Shown: positions 7,901 through 11,413 of the stretch, in pieces
Position numbering within the stretch: position 1 is the stretch's first letter
Layout of the letters: every line of letters begins with the position of its first letter
Translations under genes and position numbers: made by a program
Assembly: GCA_028289455.1 (NCBI GenBank)
Contig: JANQPN010000074.1
Span: 2,147-66,146 of the forward strand
Origin: Wenzhouxiangellaceae bacterium
GTDB lineage: Bacteria; Pseudomonadota; Gammaproteobacteria; Xanthomonadales; Wenzhouxiangellaceae
DNA: 64,000 bases
Direction of reading: 5' to 3'
Notes under the pieces: generated by a model
Told to the model about the DNA's origin: nothing
Seen by the model: the letters and a program-made list of their open reading frames with translations, nothing else
Database searches by the model: none

Positions 7901-8631
7901 TCTGCGAAAACCGATCCTGCACATACGCCTTCAGTAGCGGTTATCGGCAGGTTTGGTTCCGTTCTTGCCAATATCACATCACCGGTTCGACTGACCGCTG
8001 CATCAATAACAGGGCCACATGAGACAAGTCCATATATATCGTTTACAAGTGAACCAAACAGCCTGTTAAGGACAAAACCACCATTGCTCCGGTCATGAAT
8101 CGCATAGTAACTCTGCAGACTTACCTCATCACTCGTAATCAACCGGTAAGAGCCGACAATCCAGAAATTGGACGGCGTCAATACCAGCGACAAATCGTCC
8201 CAGGTGGAAGTATCGGCCTCGGTTTCTTCGACTGCATTGAATAAAGCATCGCCATTGCTGTCAAACCCCTGCACAAATACCGACTGGCCGGCACCGTTGC
8301 TGCCAGTCCAAAGAACGTACATATCACTGTCATCATTGATCGCCACATCTACATGCATTCCATCAACATCGATGCCCTGTTTTACAACCGTCGTCAGCAC
8401 AGTGTTGTCATTGTCCATCCGCATACAGGTGATCTCTATGATCCCCGAGCGGTAACAGACGGCATATTCGCCGGTTACCGGGTTGGTATCCAATGCCACA
8501 GCCGTTCCGTTTATATCGACCGCATAACTACCGATGCTGGTATCGAAATCAAGGCTGATTAATTCGGCATATGTCGATGTGCTGGTGACCAGCAACCAGA
8601 GTGAAAAAATCTGTTTTATGTATATATTCAT
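4939..8631 (-). CDS. Giant exported multidomain protein, copy 2: N-terminal repeat (propeller-like) region, 2x Calx-beta, 4x BACON/Ig-like Cys-Trp modules, C-terminal LamG/jelly-roll-like domain
   Basis: 1230-aa ORF with signal peptide MNIYIKQIFSLWLLVTSTSTYA. Calx-beta signatures are GIDYTPVQGTLRFVSGGEQSQSIFIPIISDTEFEDNELF and GDDYQAASGSVQFLPGGTEATIVLTVFGDTINENTETF. Four modules fit the pattern C.W......W..(I/V)....G.G.G...(V/L), e.g. CLWDISTDSDWITITNPSTGSGTGTATV. Confidence 0.9.
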   Translation of the reverse strand: MNIYIKQIFSLWLLVTSTSTYAELISLDFDTSIGSYAVDINGTAVALDTNPVTGEYAVCYRSGIIEITCMRMDNDNTVLTTVVKQGIDVDGMHVDVAINDDSDMYVLWTGSNGAGQSVFVQGFDSNGDALFNAVEETEADTSTWDDLSLVLTPSNFWIVGSYRLITSDEVSLQSYYAIHDRSNGGFVLNRLFGSLVNDIYGLVSCGPVIDAAVSRTGDVILARTEPNLPITATEGVCAGSVFAETIRENGDNISNSVQLSDSITDPDDGSDLSNFHDPATIAYENGEYVVAWRDTDNAIYAANLQLDGSIVTQSSLVGVGGDVRVGGNAATQDYVVLGYDDANNDCGVNGRLALDADISPSVTFNIFTGVCHWDRQIQFVSDGSIILVRASNDELNGDILVYRIGLPAELEISSTSILEGDPQRGQGTLATVEVTINRPQPDGEAIEVSYFPRDDTALAGIDYTPVQGTLRFVSGGEQSQSIFIPIISDTEFEDNELFSMVIEDADNAVIRNGGDTGTVLIINDDSSPDISFSCGIGGSGSCPDNVDEPAPGETVDLFITLTMAEAIDRIVTVNYDTVDGTATAGDDYQAASGSVQFLPGGTEATIVLTVFGDTINENTETFILELSGADTVSLIETSITFSIINENLCNLDLDPDPNEVVLDSAGLINGQTPSFTVNSTQTSCLWDISTDSDWITITNPSTGSGTGTATVDFTADPYDPAPGEPQARNGSIMVTLNDTLVTQDPLVFMVGQDGDCDFTLSMDSADFPVDGGSGSFTVMPSDETCEWAGTSSVEWVTVTSPLEIATGTGVLEFTVSDNAGETNVENPARSFTLISDEFDYTINQDGCSYSLEQSTINVTADEDDNVPVNVLAPGSDPGACSWTATSQDSWIIIADGASGSGGGTVTLAVLDNPSVEGRTGTVLIGDEILTVNQNAQECSFDVDPASLGLCPDGELFALNVAATDGCTWQLVEEQDWLEILTNGAGEGDETATVQAQSNLSESPRNGTMQLLVSLENLPLIDIDLVQEGFLIYEPFETGLPVDWLFDPDGDWTVVDDQLIGFLLGNGMGTAIDMSNACTDCKIESTVTVTTASNGSMDVLTMVGWYQDDTSFVGLAMDEFANTWRLFQTVGGETTMVEAPVVSIVPNTPYDLTLGFDGVNFFAEIDGVELLELEAMFSEPLGYAGFMVNDNNAQFSELRVTGTATPAGETDILLDDSFEEVIPLMPSMCTQ

Positions 8632-10046
8632 TGTGCAAACCCCGGTTTGACTGGTGCGGTATTCGCTGTCAATGCCTGATAGGCCTGGGAAAACAAATCA
8701 TATGCGGCCAAATAATTCTGCTGGTTGTAAGCGGCATCACCCTGGGCCAGCAGGCTTTGGGCGGTTGTGGTTTTTGCGCCGATATTATTGAACGCCACGA
8801 TTGCCCGGATGACCACCTCCCGGGCCTGCTCCAACTCGCCGCCCACCGAGGCAGGGGCTTTAAAACGGATGATATTACTGTCCGGATCAGCCAATGCGTC
8901 GCTTAAAGCCGCCTGTGTCTGTTGTGTTAATCCCGACTGGATGCTATTTGAAATATCATCGAGGCTGGACTGGAAGGTACTGAGCGATGCAATCATTACT
9001 TGTGTATCTTCGCGAATTTCTGTGGCCTGTTGTTGCGCGTCAGCCGCACGCAGTTGAGCATCCTCAATATCAACCTGATTAACCTGGCTGCGGAACCGAA
9101 TGTCATCAACAATAGCGGTTAAACTGGTCAAATCGGCGGTTAATACATCAAGATCACTGATGACATTATTCAGGCTGTTTTCAGTACCCGTGAAGTCAGA
9201 ATTGAGTGAAGACTGCACCACGGATAATTTGGCATTTACATCATCAACATCACCCTGGAGTATATCCACTGAGTCCTGCGTGGCCCGACTGGCTACCGTG
9301 GTATCGATATATTCGTTTAAGTAATCGGCAATATTGGTTTCTGTATCCAGAATGGCCTGCAGGTAGGCATCACGTTGTTCCTGCAGGCAAAAATCTACTG
9401 CCAATGAGGAAAACTTGGCTGCATCGGTGGCGATATTGGCCGGTGAGCATAATTCTGCAGCATTCTCACCGGCTATGGTTTGTACACAACTCCATTTCAT
9501 GCCGGCCAGTACTTCTGCAACAATTCCCCAGGCAGTGATTAATGAAAAGCCCAGCTCAGATGGAATGTTCTGACACGGTCTGAAATCTGTACCTGGAACA
9601 ATCGCATCCACCTGAGGGTTGGGGAATTCTATTTCGCCGGACTCGGATGAATTTCGTGTAATAGGGATAGTCGGAAAATCCTGCGCAAGTGTAATAGACG
9701 TTTCAAGCGCCTGCTGCGCCTGCAGGGCGCGAGCCTGAAGTATTTCAATTGAAGGGAGATTCTGGATCATCAATTCAAGTTGTGAAATATCCATCAGCAT
9801 AATTTCACTGTTGAGCTGGTCAAGAAATGCCTGCTGTTCAACTGAGCCGGTGTACTGTACGGTTAGCTCCAATGTTTCAGTTAACGTCAGCATGAGCTGC
9901 TGAAACCCATCTACTGTATTACCTGAATCCATTGACCGGGTATCTGAACGATCAGAAATACCTCCACCGGTAAAATCCTGTGCTGAAGCAGGCTGAGTGG
10001 CTAAAACTGCAGCAACGATCAGTACGACTAGAAATGGTTTAATCAT
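8628..10046 (-). CDS. Exported helical protein, type A, cassette 2 (unassigned family)
   Basis: ORF 8628..10052. The preferred start is the ATG at 10044-10046 (MIKPFLVVLIVAAVLATQPASA-QD), because GGAGA at 10053-10057 directly abuts the first ATG. Its stop overlaps the giant-gene start as ATGA (8628-8631). Confidence 0.85.
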   Translation of the reverse strand: MIKPFLVVLIVAAVLATQPASAQDFTGGGISDRSDTRSMDSGNTVDGFQQLMLTLTETLELTVQYTGSVEQQAFLDQLNSEIMLMDISQLELMIQNLPSIEILQARALQAQQALETSITLAQDFPTIPITRNSSESGEIEFPNPQVDAIVPGTDFRPCQNIPSELGFSLITAWGIVAEVLAGMKWSCVQTIAGENAAELCSPANIATDAAKFSSLAVDFCLQEQRDAYLQAILDTETNIADYLNEYIDTTVASRATQDSVDILQGDVDDVNAKLSVVQSSLNSDFTGTENSLNNVISDLDVLTADLTSLTAIVDDIRFRSQVNQVDIEDAQLRAADAQQQATEIREDTQVMIASLSTFQSSLDDISNSIQSGLTQQTQAALSDALADPDSNIIRFKAPASVGGELEQAREVVIRAIVAFNNIGAKTTTAQSLLAQGDAAYNQQNYLAAYDLFSQAYQALTANTAPVKPGFAQ

Positions 10047-10057
10047 ATGCATTCTCC

Positions 10058-11413
10058 CTAACGCAGACTGCCGGCAGACCCGATAGCCCGATAGGCCTGG
10101 GCGAACAGGTTATAAGCTGCCAGATAGTTTTCAGCGTTGTAAGCCTGATCACCCTGAGTCAACAGAGTCAGTGCCGTGCCGGTATTGCCGGGGCTGATAC
10201 TGTCCATCAGGACAATCGCCTGAATAACCACTTCACGAACCTCTTCCAGCTGCCCACCATGTTCCGCAGGGGTTACGTATTCTGGTACGGTGTAGTCCGG
10301 ATTGGCCAATGCCCGGGCAATTTCATCCCGATTAAGTAATATGAATCCATCGGCAACCGCGCTGGTCAGCTCATCAGCAGTTGTCTGGAGCATGCCGGTC
10401 ACAGAGATCAAATCCTGTGTATCTTGACGGATTTCCTCACCTGACTGCTGCAAATCAGCAGTGCGTGTCTGCACATCCTGAATGTTGACCTGATTTATCT
10501 GTGTCCGGAATTGAACATCTTCGGTTTCAGCGATTAAGTTGGTCAGGTTTTCAGTTAAGTCCTGCAGTTCCGCCAAGGTCACATCCAGGTCATCACTGAT
10601 AGTGACAAAATTGGTGTCAATAGTATTCTGTATATCTATCAATACGTTGTCGGCCGCCAGCGTGCTGACTGTCACCTGATCGACGGCATCCTGGGATGTC
10701 CGGCTTGAAATTGCCGTTTGATCCACGGCCTCATTGAAAAAAGCGCCGATATTGCGATCCAGTTGTAAAATTGCCTCGCCTTTGGCTGCACGTGACTCAC
10801 CCCGGCAAAAATCGCCTTCACGATAGACAAATTCAGCAGTCACTGCGGCAATCTCAAGCACGGTACAGGCAGTAGCACTGTTTTCTCCCGCCACCTGTTG
10901 GAGACAGGTAAACTTTGCCGCTTCCACAACCGCGCTCAGTATCTTATAAGTCCCCTGTGAAATACCTACTACTGTCCCTGGAATGTCAATGCAAAATGCG
11001 ATGGCGGTTTCGACTTCCGGGATATCAATGGTATCCACTTCCGGTGATGAATCTGAATTGAAAACATTGATATCCGGTTGTTCAGAAGCTCTCAGAGCGC
11101 CTGGTAATGCGCTAATTTGCTGTTGCGCCATTAACACCATAGCCTGCAGCGTATTCAACGGCATGGCGTTTGACTGCATTGCCACAAGCGCTTCATCCGG
11201 CATCTGTATGATTTGCTGAAGGGCGTGACGGACAGTTGCCTGTGAATTGGAAGAGGGGATATAGGTGTGCAGTTGCTCAGTAAGCAGATTCAGCTCTATC
11301 AGCGCATCGCGGTATTCCCGCACTGTTTGTGCCTGTAAAACACTACTGAAGAGTAAGCTGCCCACAATCAGCAAGCTGCCGGGCAGGGCGCCTGATCGCA
11401 ACAATCTAAGCAT
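10058..11413 (-). CDS. Exported helical protein, type B, cassette 2 (unassigned family)
   Basis: 451-aa ORF with GGGAG 9 nt upstream of the ATG and signal peptide ..LLFSSVLQA-QT. It shares every conserved block with 3363..4697. Confidence 0.9.
   Translation of the reverse strand: MLRLLRSGALPGSLLIVGSLLFSSVLQAQTVREYRDALIELNLLTEQLHTYIPSSNSQATVRHALQQIIQMPDEALVAMQSNAMPLNTLQAMVLMAQQQISALPGALRASEQPDINVFNSDSSPEVDTIDIPEVETAIAFCIDIPGTVVGISQGTYKILSAVVEAAKFTCLQQVAGENSATACTVLEIAAVTAEFVYREGDFCRGESRAAKGEAILQLDRNIGAFFNEAVDQTAISSRTSQDAVDQVTVSTLAADNVLIDIQNTIDTNFVTISDDLDVTLAELQDLTENLTNLIAETEDVQFRTQINQVNIQDVQTRTADLQQSGEEIRQDTQDLISVTGMLQTTADELTSAVADGFILLNRDEIARALANPDYTVPEYVTPAEHGGQLEEVREVVIQAIVLMDSISPGNTGTALTLLTQGDQAYNAENYLAAYNLFAQAYRAIGSAGSLR

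Follow-up and report, generated by a model that had tools for sequence, protein, structure and literature searches.

A 64,000-nucleotide stretch of DNA from a Wenzhouxiangellaceae bacterium (GenBank assembly GCA_028289455.1, contig JANQPN010000074.1, positions 2,147 to 66,146; the whole stretch is called the window here) carries on its minus strand the genes for four paralogous proteins of 444 to 474 amino acids (aa), B2, A2, B1, and A1, referred to jointly as the A/B proteins. We put at about even the chances that these are exported coiled-coil stalks, parallel and in register, which probably assemble as A:B hetero-oligomers and work with a large co-encoded protein, BIG, as an extracytoplasmic structural or adhesive complex. 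What points this way is the architecture of the proteins, the continuity of their heptad pattern, and the invariant length of the stalk, together with the operon coupling of the genes and the conservation of BIG as their neighbor.

A translationally coupled triad of B, A, and BIG genes

The two cassettes in the window comprise the following features, in which A- and B-type proteins are listed as putative stalk proteins.

10058-11413, minus strand: B2, putative B-type stalk protein, 451 aa, first gene of cassette 2 (open reading frame [ORF]; B clade with L1_Ba and L6_Ba; no Pfam/NCBIfam match above cutoff)
8628-10052, minus strand: A2, putative A-type stalk protein, 474 aa (ORF; 100% match to P0001; AlphaFold2 [AF2] model with a mean predicted local distance difference test [pLDDT] of 80.6)
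4939-8631, minus strand: BIG2, 1230 aa, with a predicted signal peptide (Pfam Calx-beta, BACON_2, and BACON; kept as a neighbor across all related loci)
4751-4764, minus strand: weak terminator-like hairpin and T-run between BIG2 and B1 (consensus scan only, 5-bp stem)
3363-4697, minus strand: B1, putative B-type stalk protein, 444 aa, first gene of cassette 1 (ORF; orthologue L1_Bb, 68% identity)
1975-3366, minus strand: A1, putative A-type stalk protein, 463 aa (ORF; orthologue L1_Ab/P0007, 66% identity)
1-1978, minus strand: 5' part of BIG1, 659 codons, continuing past the window start (translation and gene junction; BIG2 paralogue; Calx-beta 5.9e-29)

Stop and start codons overlap by 4 nucleotides (nt) between B1 and A1, between A1 and BIG1 (junction ATGA), and between A2 and BIG2, while A2 starts 5 nt past the B2 stop codon (the start in the NCBI record, P0001, lies two codons after the ORF start). 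Because these codons overlap and a BIG gene follows each A/B pair, we conclude that the repeated unit is not an A/B pair and is instead a translationally coupled three-gene triad, B-A-BIG, present in the window as a tandem duplicate. The three paralogue identities are nearly equal (41% for A1/A2, 38% for B1/B2, and 42% for BIG1/BIG2), indicating that the whole triad was duplicated once and diverged evenly. The hairpin at 4751-4764 is a possible boundary between the cassettes.

Outside the window the triad is kept at eight distinct loci; at L001, L003, L005, L006, L007, L008, and L009 the flanking genes are unrelated. L001 is a tandem double cassette like that of the window, L006 is also a double cassette, and L003 carries B-A-BIG followed by A-BIG. 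The second L003 cassette (15311-20325) consists of a divergent A-type gene, P0022, and then BIG, with no B-type gene, which shows that a single stalk paralogue can suffice. Throughout the close clade, B and A are strictly adjacent and coupled in 11 of 11 two-stalk cassettes. Further out, the order is helical-BIG-helical' in a Marinicella relative with 27% identity to A2 (L015), L016 has helical-BIG on a contig that starts just upstream of the helical gene, and P0075, more distant again, is encoded by a gene on its own. From the triads and these outlying cases it follows that the deepest conserved partnership is that of a stalk protein with BIG, the stalk side consisting of one or two paralogues. 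For many distant family members, the gene has no BIG-like neighbor.

BIG2 exceeds the Pfam cutoffs for two Calx-beta and three BACON-type domains (Calx-beta, 4.4e-30, 104.6 bits, cutoff 27; BACON_2, 6e-10, 39.3 bits, and BACON, 1.3e-9, 38.4 bits, cutoff 25), and the Calx-beta match of BIG1 scored 101 bits. In this respect BIG resembles the multidomain Calx-beta/BACON surface proteins. It differs from them in its N-terminal ~400 aa and C-terminal ~200 aa, for which no significant PDB or Pfam match was found (the BIG2 C terminus gave a weak ConA-like signal and a weak TS_C match), and in its fixed partnership with a stalk protein, which was not described in the literature searched. Giant Calx-beta/BACON proteins are common yet poorly understood in marine bacteria. 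If the stalk presents or anchors BIG, this would explain how such giants without a recognizable anchor are positioned at the surface.

Two loci have distinctive surroundings. In the Marinicella metagenome-assembled genome (MAG) that holds L015, the cassette is flanked by three gene pairs coding for an extracytoplasmic function (ECF) sigma factor and a Ser/Thr-kinase-TPR protein (2886-9851 and 17888-20841); the other loci lack these pairs, which may form a regulatory context. Directly upstream of the L001 double cassette, on the opposite strand (1-8160), are genes for a 1647-aa RHS/YD-shell protein and a 1449-aa Cadherin/Big_9/fn3 protein that are not kept elsewhere.

Helical architecture and a coiled coil of invariant length

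The four A/B ORFs aligned over their full length with pairwise identities of 30 to 41%. All four proteins share invariant cysteines with a spacing of 29/13/20, and the four Cys were unchanged in alignments of 15 and 53 members. The blocks that the initial annotation, made from the window sequence, had listed as common to the family, SR(A/T)(S/T)QD(S/A)VD, NQ(I/V)(D/N)(I/V)(E/Q)D(A/V)Q, and EIRxDTQ, followed by GG(E/Q)LExxRE(I/V)VI and GDxAYNxxxYL(T/A)AYxLF, were found in every one of the four. Its division of the proteins into distinct A and B types was likewise sound: the signatures CL(E/Q)EQRDAYL (A) and FCRxxxRAAKGE (B) are present, and the two types form well-separated clades with mirrored topology. 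Its description of an unassigned, mostly helical, and putatively exported family was also borne out, with no Pfam or NCBIfam model at cutoff and source names that are nearly all "hypothetical." Within A2, the architecture is laid out as follows.

9981-10052, minus strand: predicted signal peptide, residues 1-24, with putative cleavage at ASA-Q (N-terminal 19-residue Kyte-Doolittle maximum, 2.09)
9678-9914, minus strand: N-terminal helical domain, residues 47-125, four helices (AF2 pLDDT 83-95; no Pfam or PDB match)
9387-9575, minus strand: 4-Cys helical hairpin (C160, C189, C202, and C222; Cys invariant in 53 sequences; AF2; 63 residues, 8 charged)
8880-9377, minus strand: predicted coiled-coil stalk, residues 226-391, including SSRATQDSVD and the core block (heptad period, invariant length)
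9060-9104, minus strand: most conserved stalk block, DIRFRSQVNQVDIED in A2, residues 317-331 (invariant D317, R321, Q323, N325 at heptad d, Q326, and D331)
8664-8855, minus strand: C-terminal cap, residues 400-463 (LPxxxGGxLExxRE and a TPR-like helix pair, GDxAYNxxxYLxAYxLFxxAY; AF2 pLDDT >95)

The AF2 model of A2, a monomer prediction built from the 53-sequence alignment, had a predicted template modeling score (pTM) of 0.45 and low confidence at residues 250 to 290. It shows four N-terminal helices (pLDDT mostly >90), a continuous helix from 259 to 388, and a three-helix cap from 407 to 463 (pLDDT >95).

Hydrophobic N termini were kept across homologues with the contexts ANA-Q (A1), ASA-Q (A2), VHA-Q (B1), and LQA-Q (B2). 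Accordingly, the AxA-Q cleavage context that had been ascribed to all four proteins holds for A1 and A2 and does not hold for B1 and B2; a cleavage site is expected to have a small residue at −1 and a small or aliphatic one at −3, and here −1 is Ala throughout and −3 is Ala in A1 and A2, Val in B1, and Leu in B2. Read from these sequences, the signal peptides and cleavage sites suggest that A and B are exported by Sec.

The hydrophobic 4-Cys segment of about 70 residues described earlier needed more revision. Its invariant Cys stand, whereas its length is 63 residues and its character is amphipathic. With 8 to 11 charged residues, a mean Kyte-Doolittle value of 0.6 to 0.7, and a best 19-residue window of only 1.26 to 1.67, it does not resemble a transmembrane hairpin. 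In the AF2 model of A2, a helix at 165-190 is followed by a tiny beta turn at an invariant G-x-N and by a second helix that carries the third and fourth Cys. The hairpin is probably stapled by two disulfides that would form after export, with C160-C222 and C189-C202 as the presumed pairs.

The heptad-like region of about 170 residues proved to be real. Column-averaged hydrophobicity had an exact 3.50-residue period across residues 226 to 391 (power of 89.6 versus 0.2 at 3.6), the heptad phase stayed constant within <1 residue over this span, and the same period recurred in the 53-member alignment. Mean Kyte-Doolittle values were 1.16 at position a, 2.37 at d, and −0.35 to −1.76 at the remaining heptad positions, so that the hydrophobicity pattern is continuous and free of phase breaks, as in a canonical left-handed coiled coil. 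No column between 205 and 389 had Pro in at least 3 of the 23 cassette proteins, and the 53-member alignment had no conserved Gly or Pro between ~243 and 373. The number of residues between positions 226 and 400 was 175 in 12 of 12 A-type and 176 in 11 of 11 B-type proteins, with zero indels in either type from the SSRASQ motif through the GG motif. Heptad continuity, the lack of Pro and Gly, and invariant length together indicate a single long coiled coil, probably parallel, of ~165 residues, or ~24 nm. Since a lone helix of this length cannot be stable, the stalks must oligomerize, probably in parallel and in register.

The core of this coiled coil is unusually polar: 41% of residues are polar at a (mostly Thr and Gln) and 22% at d, where N325 is invariant. 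Position d is rich in Ile, Leu, and Val, with beta-branched residues common, and a is rich in Leu, Thr, Ala, and Gln. Polar cores that point inward are a mark of trimers and tetramers, and in trimers the polar residue at a is most often Gln or Thr (PMC13580157); we therefore infer that the stalk is a bundle of three or four helices.

The last helix pair of the cap (..A..L..GD.AYN.G.Y..AY..Y..AY) aligned with consensus and natural TPR units in a profile search of the PDB. It differs from a TPR array in being a single unit with individual matches of 10 to 13 bits, and the Pfam models TPR_12, TPR_16, and TPR_2 matched the cap at E values of 0.01 to 0.3, all under their gathering thresholds. The cap module also occurs alone in many distant proteins.

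Resemblance between cassette partners in the central block

The initial annotation had claimed that in the central helix, at what is now the block of residues 317 to 331, partners from the same cassette resemble each other more than they resemble their own orthologues, and it had read this as co-evolution of a cognate A:B interface. We compared 23 A/B proteins from nine loci. (Bootstrap values of the neighbor-joining tree were inflated by a counting flaw, some to >100, and the tree was read qualitatively only.) The family consensus of the block is DIQFRVQENQVDIED(A/V)QTR..., followed by EIRTDTQSIIS, and the cassette-1 sequences singled out earlier, DIQFRVQENQVDIED and EIRTDTQSIISS, are plain family consensus; F320L and V327I set both A1 and B1 apart from their L001 orthologues. 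The A1/B1 resemblance reads mainly as shared retention of the consensus. The claim held for the core block of cassette 1 (82% for A1/B1 versus 58% for A1/A2) and failed for cassette 2 (52% for A2/B2 versus 58% for A2/A1). At L001, the non-cognate pair Aa/Bb was at least as close (82% similar) as the cognate pair Aa/Ba (76%). The cassette-2 state (RSQVNQ in A, RTQ[IV]NQ in B) is common to the orthologous cassettes of L001 and L006 and is therefore old, and elsewhere the B-type protein varies at block positions while its partner A does not (RVQVNQ in L8_B, RVQENQ in L8_A).

Gene conversion between the adjacent paralogues could also produce similarity within a cassette, and we regard it as extremely unlikely here. 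The paralogues do lie side by side in the same orientation, and quartet sites grouped by cassette outnumber the alternative pattern (11 versus 7 in the window, 12 versus 1 at L001, and 13 versus 5 at L006). In addition, seven identical substitutions map to the type-2 stem, six of them within residues 310 to 371, and synonymous sites are saturated, which leaves some room for very ancient micro-conversions. Against these points, when A and B were drawn from different genomes the excess held in one of the two quartets formed (11 versus 3; the other, 6 versus 3) and hence is an ancient, type-level signal. Among identical residues of the core block, A1 and B1 use identical codons at 7 of 14, which is the level of other regions and of the orthologue pairs (5 of 14 and 7 of 14). 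The synonymous differences listed earlier between A1 and B1 (gac/gat, atc/att, ttg/ctg, agg/cgg, and gtg/gta) were all correct, and the argument drawn from them against recent conversion stands. The shared Leu and Ile were reached by different codons and mutational paths (TTG versus CTG and ATC versus ATT), and within the putative tract, among the parallel sites, residues 332, 336, and 339 still tell A from B. At the scale of whole genes, the matching topologies of the A and B subtrees indicate that the two types co-diverged as linked pairs without whole-gene homogenization.

When changes were mapped by parsimony on the shared cassette tree, same-site, same-branch changes in A and B numbered 276, compared to 242.9 ± 11.8 expected (P = 0.004). 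Shared rate shifts could yield such an excess without any contact. Of nine same-branch parallel changes in the stalk, seven were at heptad positions c or f (310, 320, 324, 327, 341, 348, and 355) and two at a or d; coupling, if real, thus points to a shared outer surface and not to an A:B core. This surface could be a BIG-binding site or a higher-order contact. Overall, the covariation is suggestive of weak coupling between A and B, short of a cognate interface.

Competing readings, known systems, and the wider family

According to the stalk reading, A and B would leave the cytoplasm through Sec, and each would comprise a helical N-terminal domain, a stapled hairpin, a coiled coil of ~165 residues, and a three-helix cap that includes the TPR-like last pair. 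The stalks would pack in parallel and in register, likely as an A:B hetero-oligomer of three or four helices, and would bind the co-encoded BIG (~1230 aa) to give a stoichiometric extracytoplasmic complex. The stalk would act as a fixed-length spacer or anchor, and BIG would contribute calcium-dependent binding to carbohydrates or surfaces. The second cassette, a product of the old triad duplication, would now specify a diverged and probably non-interchangeable complex. In favor of A acting with B are the mirrored phylogenies and the modest excess of same-branch changes.

A number of observations weigh against this reading. Identical substitutions in both partners coincided on a branch in 18 cases, not significantly more than the ~12.8 expected (P = 0.09), and another 211 were on different branches, so homoplasy at constrained sites is very common and the co-evolving cognate interface proposed in the initial annotation is not established. 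Scores for g-e' charge pairing and for a/d core layers did not separate cognate from swapped A:B pairs. The solo P0075 and the B-less A-BIG cassette of L003 imply that hetero-oligomerization is not obligatory for the fold. With the shallower 15-sequence alignment, AF2 returned three ~55-residue helices at a pLDDT of 59.5, an unusable model, and given the low confidence at 250 to 290 and the pTM of 0.45, a folded-back bundle is compatible with the prediction. Finally, the function of BIG is read from its domain names only, and the cassette contains no outer membrane anchor, lipobox, or dedicated secretion gene, so that its products may end up in the periplasm, at the surface, or in the medium.

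Some of these observations would be expected if A and B formed separate homo-oligomeric stalks, as their solo ancestors presumably do, with differentiated BIG roles, such as different attachment points or conditions, an arrangement we consider rather unlikely. It would accommodate the single-stalk cases (P0075, A-BIG at L003, and helical-BIG at L016), the equal specificity scores of cognate and swapped pairs, the N-terminal domains of A and B, which are only 14 to 26% identical, and the concentration of parallel changes at outward c and f positions, which fits a common third partner over mutual contact. It sits less well with the strict pairing of coupled B and A genes seen in each of the close clade's 11 two-stalk cassettes (the second L003 cassette being A-BIG only), with a stalk length that is fixed in both types, with the mirrored trees, or with the modest co-change excess. 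A role for A and B as periplasmic, chaperone-like factors dedicated to the assembly or export of BIG, and not as its structural partners, seems improbable. Co-encoding with BIG is constant across deep divergence, the TPR-like cap belongs to a common type of peptide-binding module, and A and B have no recognizable outer membrane anchor or secretion signal, all of which would fit such factors. A length-fixed coiled coil of ~24 nm with invariant surface residues would be odd in a chaperone, however, translational coupling suggests stoichiometric and not catalytic amounts, and many distant members have no BIG-like neighbor or carry FG-GAP, PKD, or beta-helix domains of their own.

The initial annotation had also raised a likeness to the ClyA superfamily of pore formers (ClyA; YaxAB/XaxAB; Hbl, Nhe, AhlABC, SmhABC, and MakABE), for which sequence profiles, fold searches, and hydrophobicity gave no support. 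Some points do favor it: A and B are tandem paralogues, exported by prediction, all-helical, and of ~45 kDa, with a helix-turn-helix element placed between long helices, and one hairpin helix of A2 reaches the 19-residue maximum of 1.67. Toxins of the ClyA family are long and helical and are anchored in the membrane by a helix-turn-helix, and their pore components are mutual paralogues (PMC7979752). The hallmarks of the family are a five-helix-bundle tail and a head whose largely hydrophobic beta-tongue or hairpin refolds to membrane helices (PMC7979752). In A/B, by contrast, the 63-residue segment is charged (compare SmhB G175-L233) and presumably Cys-stapled, and the body is a continuous, in-phase coiled coil of ~165 residues and invariant length (a 130-residue helix in the AF2 monomer model, pTM 0.45), with no five-helix bundle or beta-tongue head. 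The third conserved gene of the triad, BIG, is a Calx-beta/BACON giant unrelated to A and B, which are paralogues in one operon. Chains of ClyA, Hbl, Nhe, Ahl, Smh, Mak, Yax, or Xax made up 0 of 21 head/hairpin profile matches in the PDB at E ≤ 10, no ClyA-family chain was among the best 60 of 481 whole-protein matches, and no ClyA-superfamily model in Pfam or NCBIfam matched A or B even at E ≤ 1. Foldseek searches with the 53-sequence AF2 model returned nothing below E = 0.05 in the PDB and nothing at E < 0.02 in the PDB and BFVD together (query TM score [TMq] ≤ 0.20), although extended helical models give such searches little discriminating power; ClyA itself ranked eighth (E = 0.42, TMq 0.12), no better than the BAR domains, Dps, and de novo designed bundles around it. 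We consider superfamily membership untenable, and it is very improbable that A and B form a bipartite alpha-pore-forming toxin in the manner of YaxAB/XaxAB, with an inserting hairpin and BIG perhaps as a receptor-binding accessory. A/B-type genes should not be annotated as ClyA-like toxins.

The fold class of the stalk proteins, a parallel coiled-coil fiber, is of a kind already known. Trimeric autotransporter adhesins are also exported fibrous proteins of Gram-negative bacteria; they have extended parallel coiled coils in which much of the core is polar and Asn occurs at d, and the whole-protein profile weakly matched a fragment of one such adhesin, SadA (2wpr, E = 0.028). They differ from A/B in several ways: A/B proteins have no YadA-like head, end in a helical TPR-like cap, and form a paralogue pair with a separate large partner. 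Pfam searches of A/B found no YadA-anchor or other barrel family, and thus no sign of the 12-stranded beta-barrel anchor. The polar bias of the A/B core (a over d) is also the reverse of that reported for these adhesins in PMC13580157. Mosaic adhesive trimer (MAT) fibers of Bdellovibrio have a signal peptide, a conserved N-terminal domain thought to lie at the cell surface, and an elongated oligomeric shaft, and they present binding domains away from the cell (PMC10769870). A/B share the conserved N-terminal domain and, by prediction, the signal peptide, are predicted to form the elongated oligomeric shaft, and are proposed to present binding domains. In MAT fibers the shaft is a beta-helix/beta-prism and the variable C-terminal tips belong to that same chain, whereas the A/B shaft is predicted to be an alpha-helical coiled coil with a conserved cap, and the candidate binding domains are on the separate BIG. 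As for phage fibers, distant A/B relatives with repeated SSRASQ-type units and weak matches to the PHROG "minor head protein" (E ~ 1e-4) raised the idea of kinship, which was dropped because no match was significant.

A bolder version of the stalk reading, which we offer tentatively as possible but doubtful, would make the triad an unrecognized extracytoplasmic apparatus of marine Gammaproteobacteria, in which an A:B molecular ruler of ~24 nm anchors BIG at a set distance from the envelope. The disulfide-stapled amphipathic hairpin would form its foot and the TPR-like module its cap, the invariant, outward-facing residues of the block (D317, R321, Q323, N325, Q326, and D331) would be a cassette-specific docking site, and the superfamily of ~600 clusters would constitute a new class of bacterial surface stalks. 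If the stalk does present or anchor BIG, the A:B pair would also offer a compact natural heteromeric coiled coil, with two diverged cognate sets in a single genome, for the study of partner specificity.

The family is real and widespread, and annotation offers nothing beyond "hypothetical." With a word-indexed homologue search, no more than 12 relatives came up, each unnamed or "hypothetical," and the same kind of search with the 53-sequence profile added only one further protein. An exhaustive profile search of 1.84 billion representatives recovered 599 representative clusters at E ≤ 1e-3, a number that fell to 139 at ≤ 1e-10 and to 44 at ≤ 1e-30. The superfamily is modular: many members share the C-terminal module alone (LPxxxGGxLExVR...GDxAYNxxxYxxAYxxYxxAY), and in others the common part is confined to the N-terminal half, which includes the 4-Cys unit. 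When 79 distant members were scanned with Pfam, neither module was assigned to a family, and the only matches were occasional fusions to FG-GAP, PKD, or beta-helix domains. The relatives come from Wenzhouxiangellaceae, Xanthomonadales, and Marinicella MAGs; the close clade was found in two Genome Taxonomy Database (GTDB) species genomes only, both uncultured Gammaproteobacteria, and tblastn against annotated phages and plasmids found no relatives. Source names are "hypothetical protein" save for P0162 (cluster of P0061), called "methionine-rich copper-binding protein CopC" in IMG, probably a mis-annotation, as no Pfam support for this was seen in the family. Searches of A/B against Pfam, NCBIfam, and PHROGs gave only sub-threshold coiled-coil noise (SMC, Rad50, ApoLp-III, CoV S2, and tape measure proteins), profile searches of the PDB with the head and the whole protein gave no match beyond such noise, and literature searched by motif, domain combination, and taxa held no description. 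This leaves ~600 clusters of putatively exported proteins for which no family model, solved structure, or literature was found, and which are under a highly unusual common constraint, namely a coiled coil of fixed length and free of indels, with a polar core and a surface block that does not vary.

Some subclades of the family have conserved extreme C termini that may be sorting or processing signals. Among the representatives P0027/29/33/34/63, P0051-55, and P0077/113/123/125/156, such termini are "...R[DN]SFE" and "...GPELPGGGF," and a clade with the N-terminal half only ends in "...LLNTPDGxRxS...C."

Elsewhere in the window, an SOS-response-associated peptidase (SRAP) gene (11921-12718, plus strand) lies upstream of B2 and diverges from it. 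L008 also has an SRAP gene near its cassette (598-1347), which suggests residual synteny among these genomes. A perfect hairpin with a 13-bp stem and a T-run (11908-11940, plus strand; terminator-like by consensus scan only) overlaps the 5' end of the SRAP ORF. Next on the plus strand (13018-14817 and 14780-16672) are two paralogous ORFs of ~600 aa, arranged in tandem with a slight overlap; with their signal-peptide-like N termini and no Pfam match, they appear to be another unannotated secreted family adjoining the cassettes. GC content is low at 26001-28000 (0.387) and 62001-64000 (0.424) compared to ~0.50 elsewhere in the window, and these segments may be horizontally acquired.

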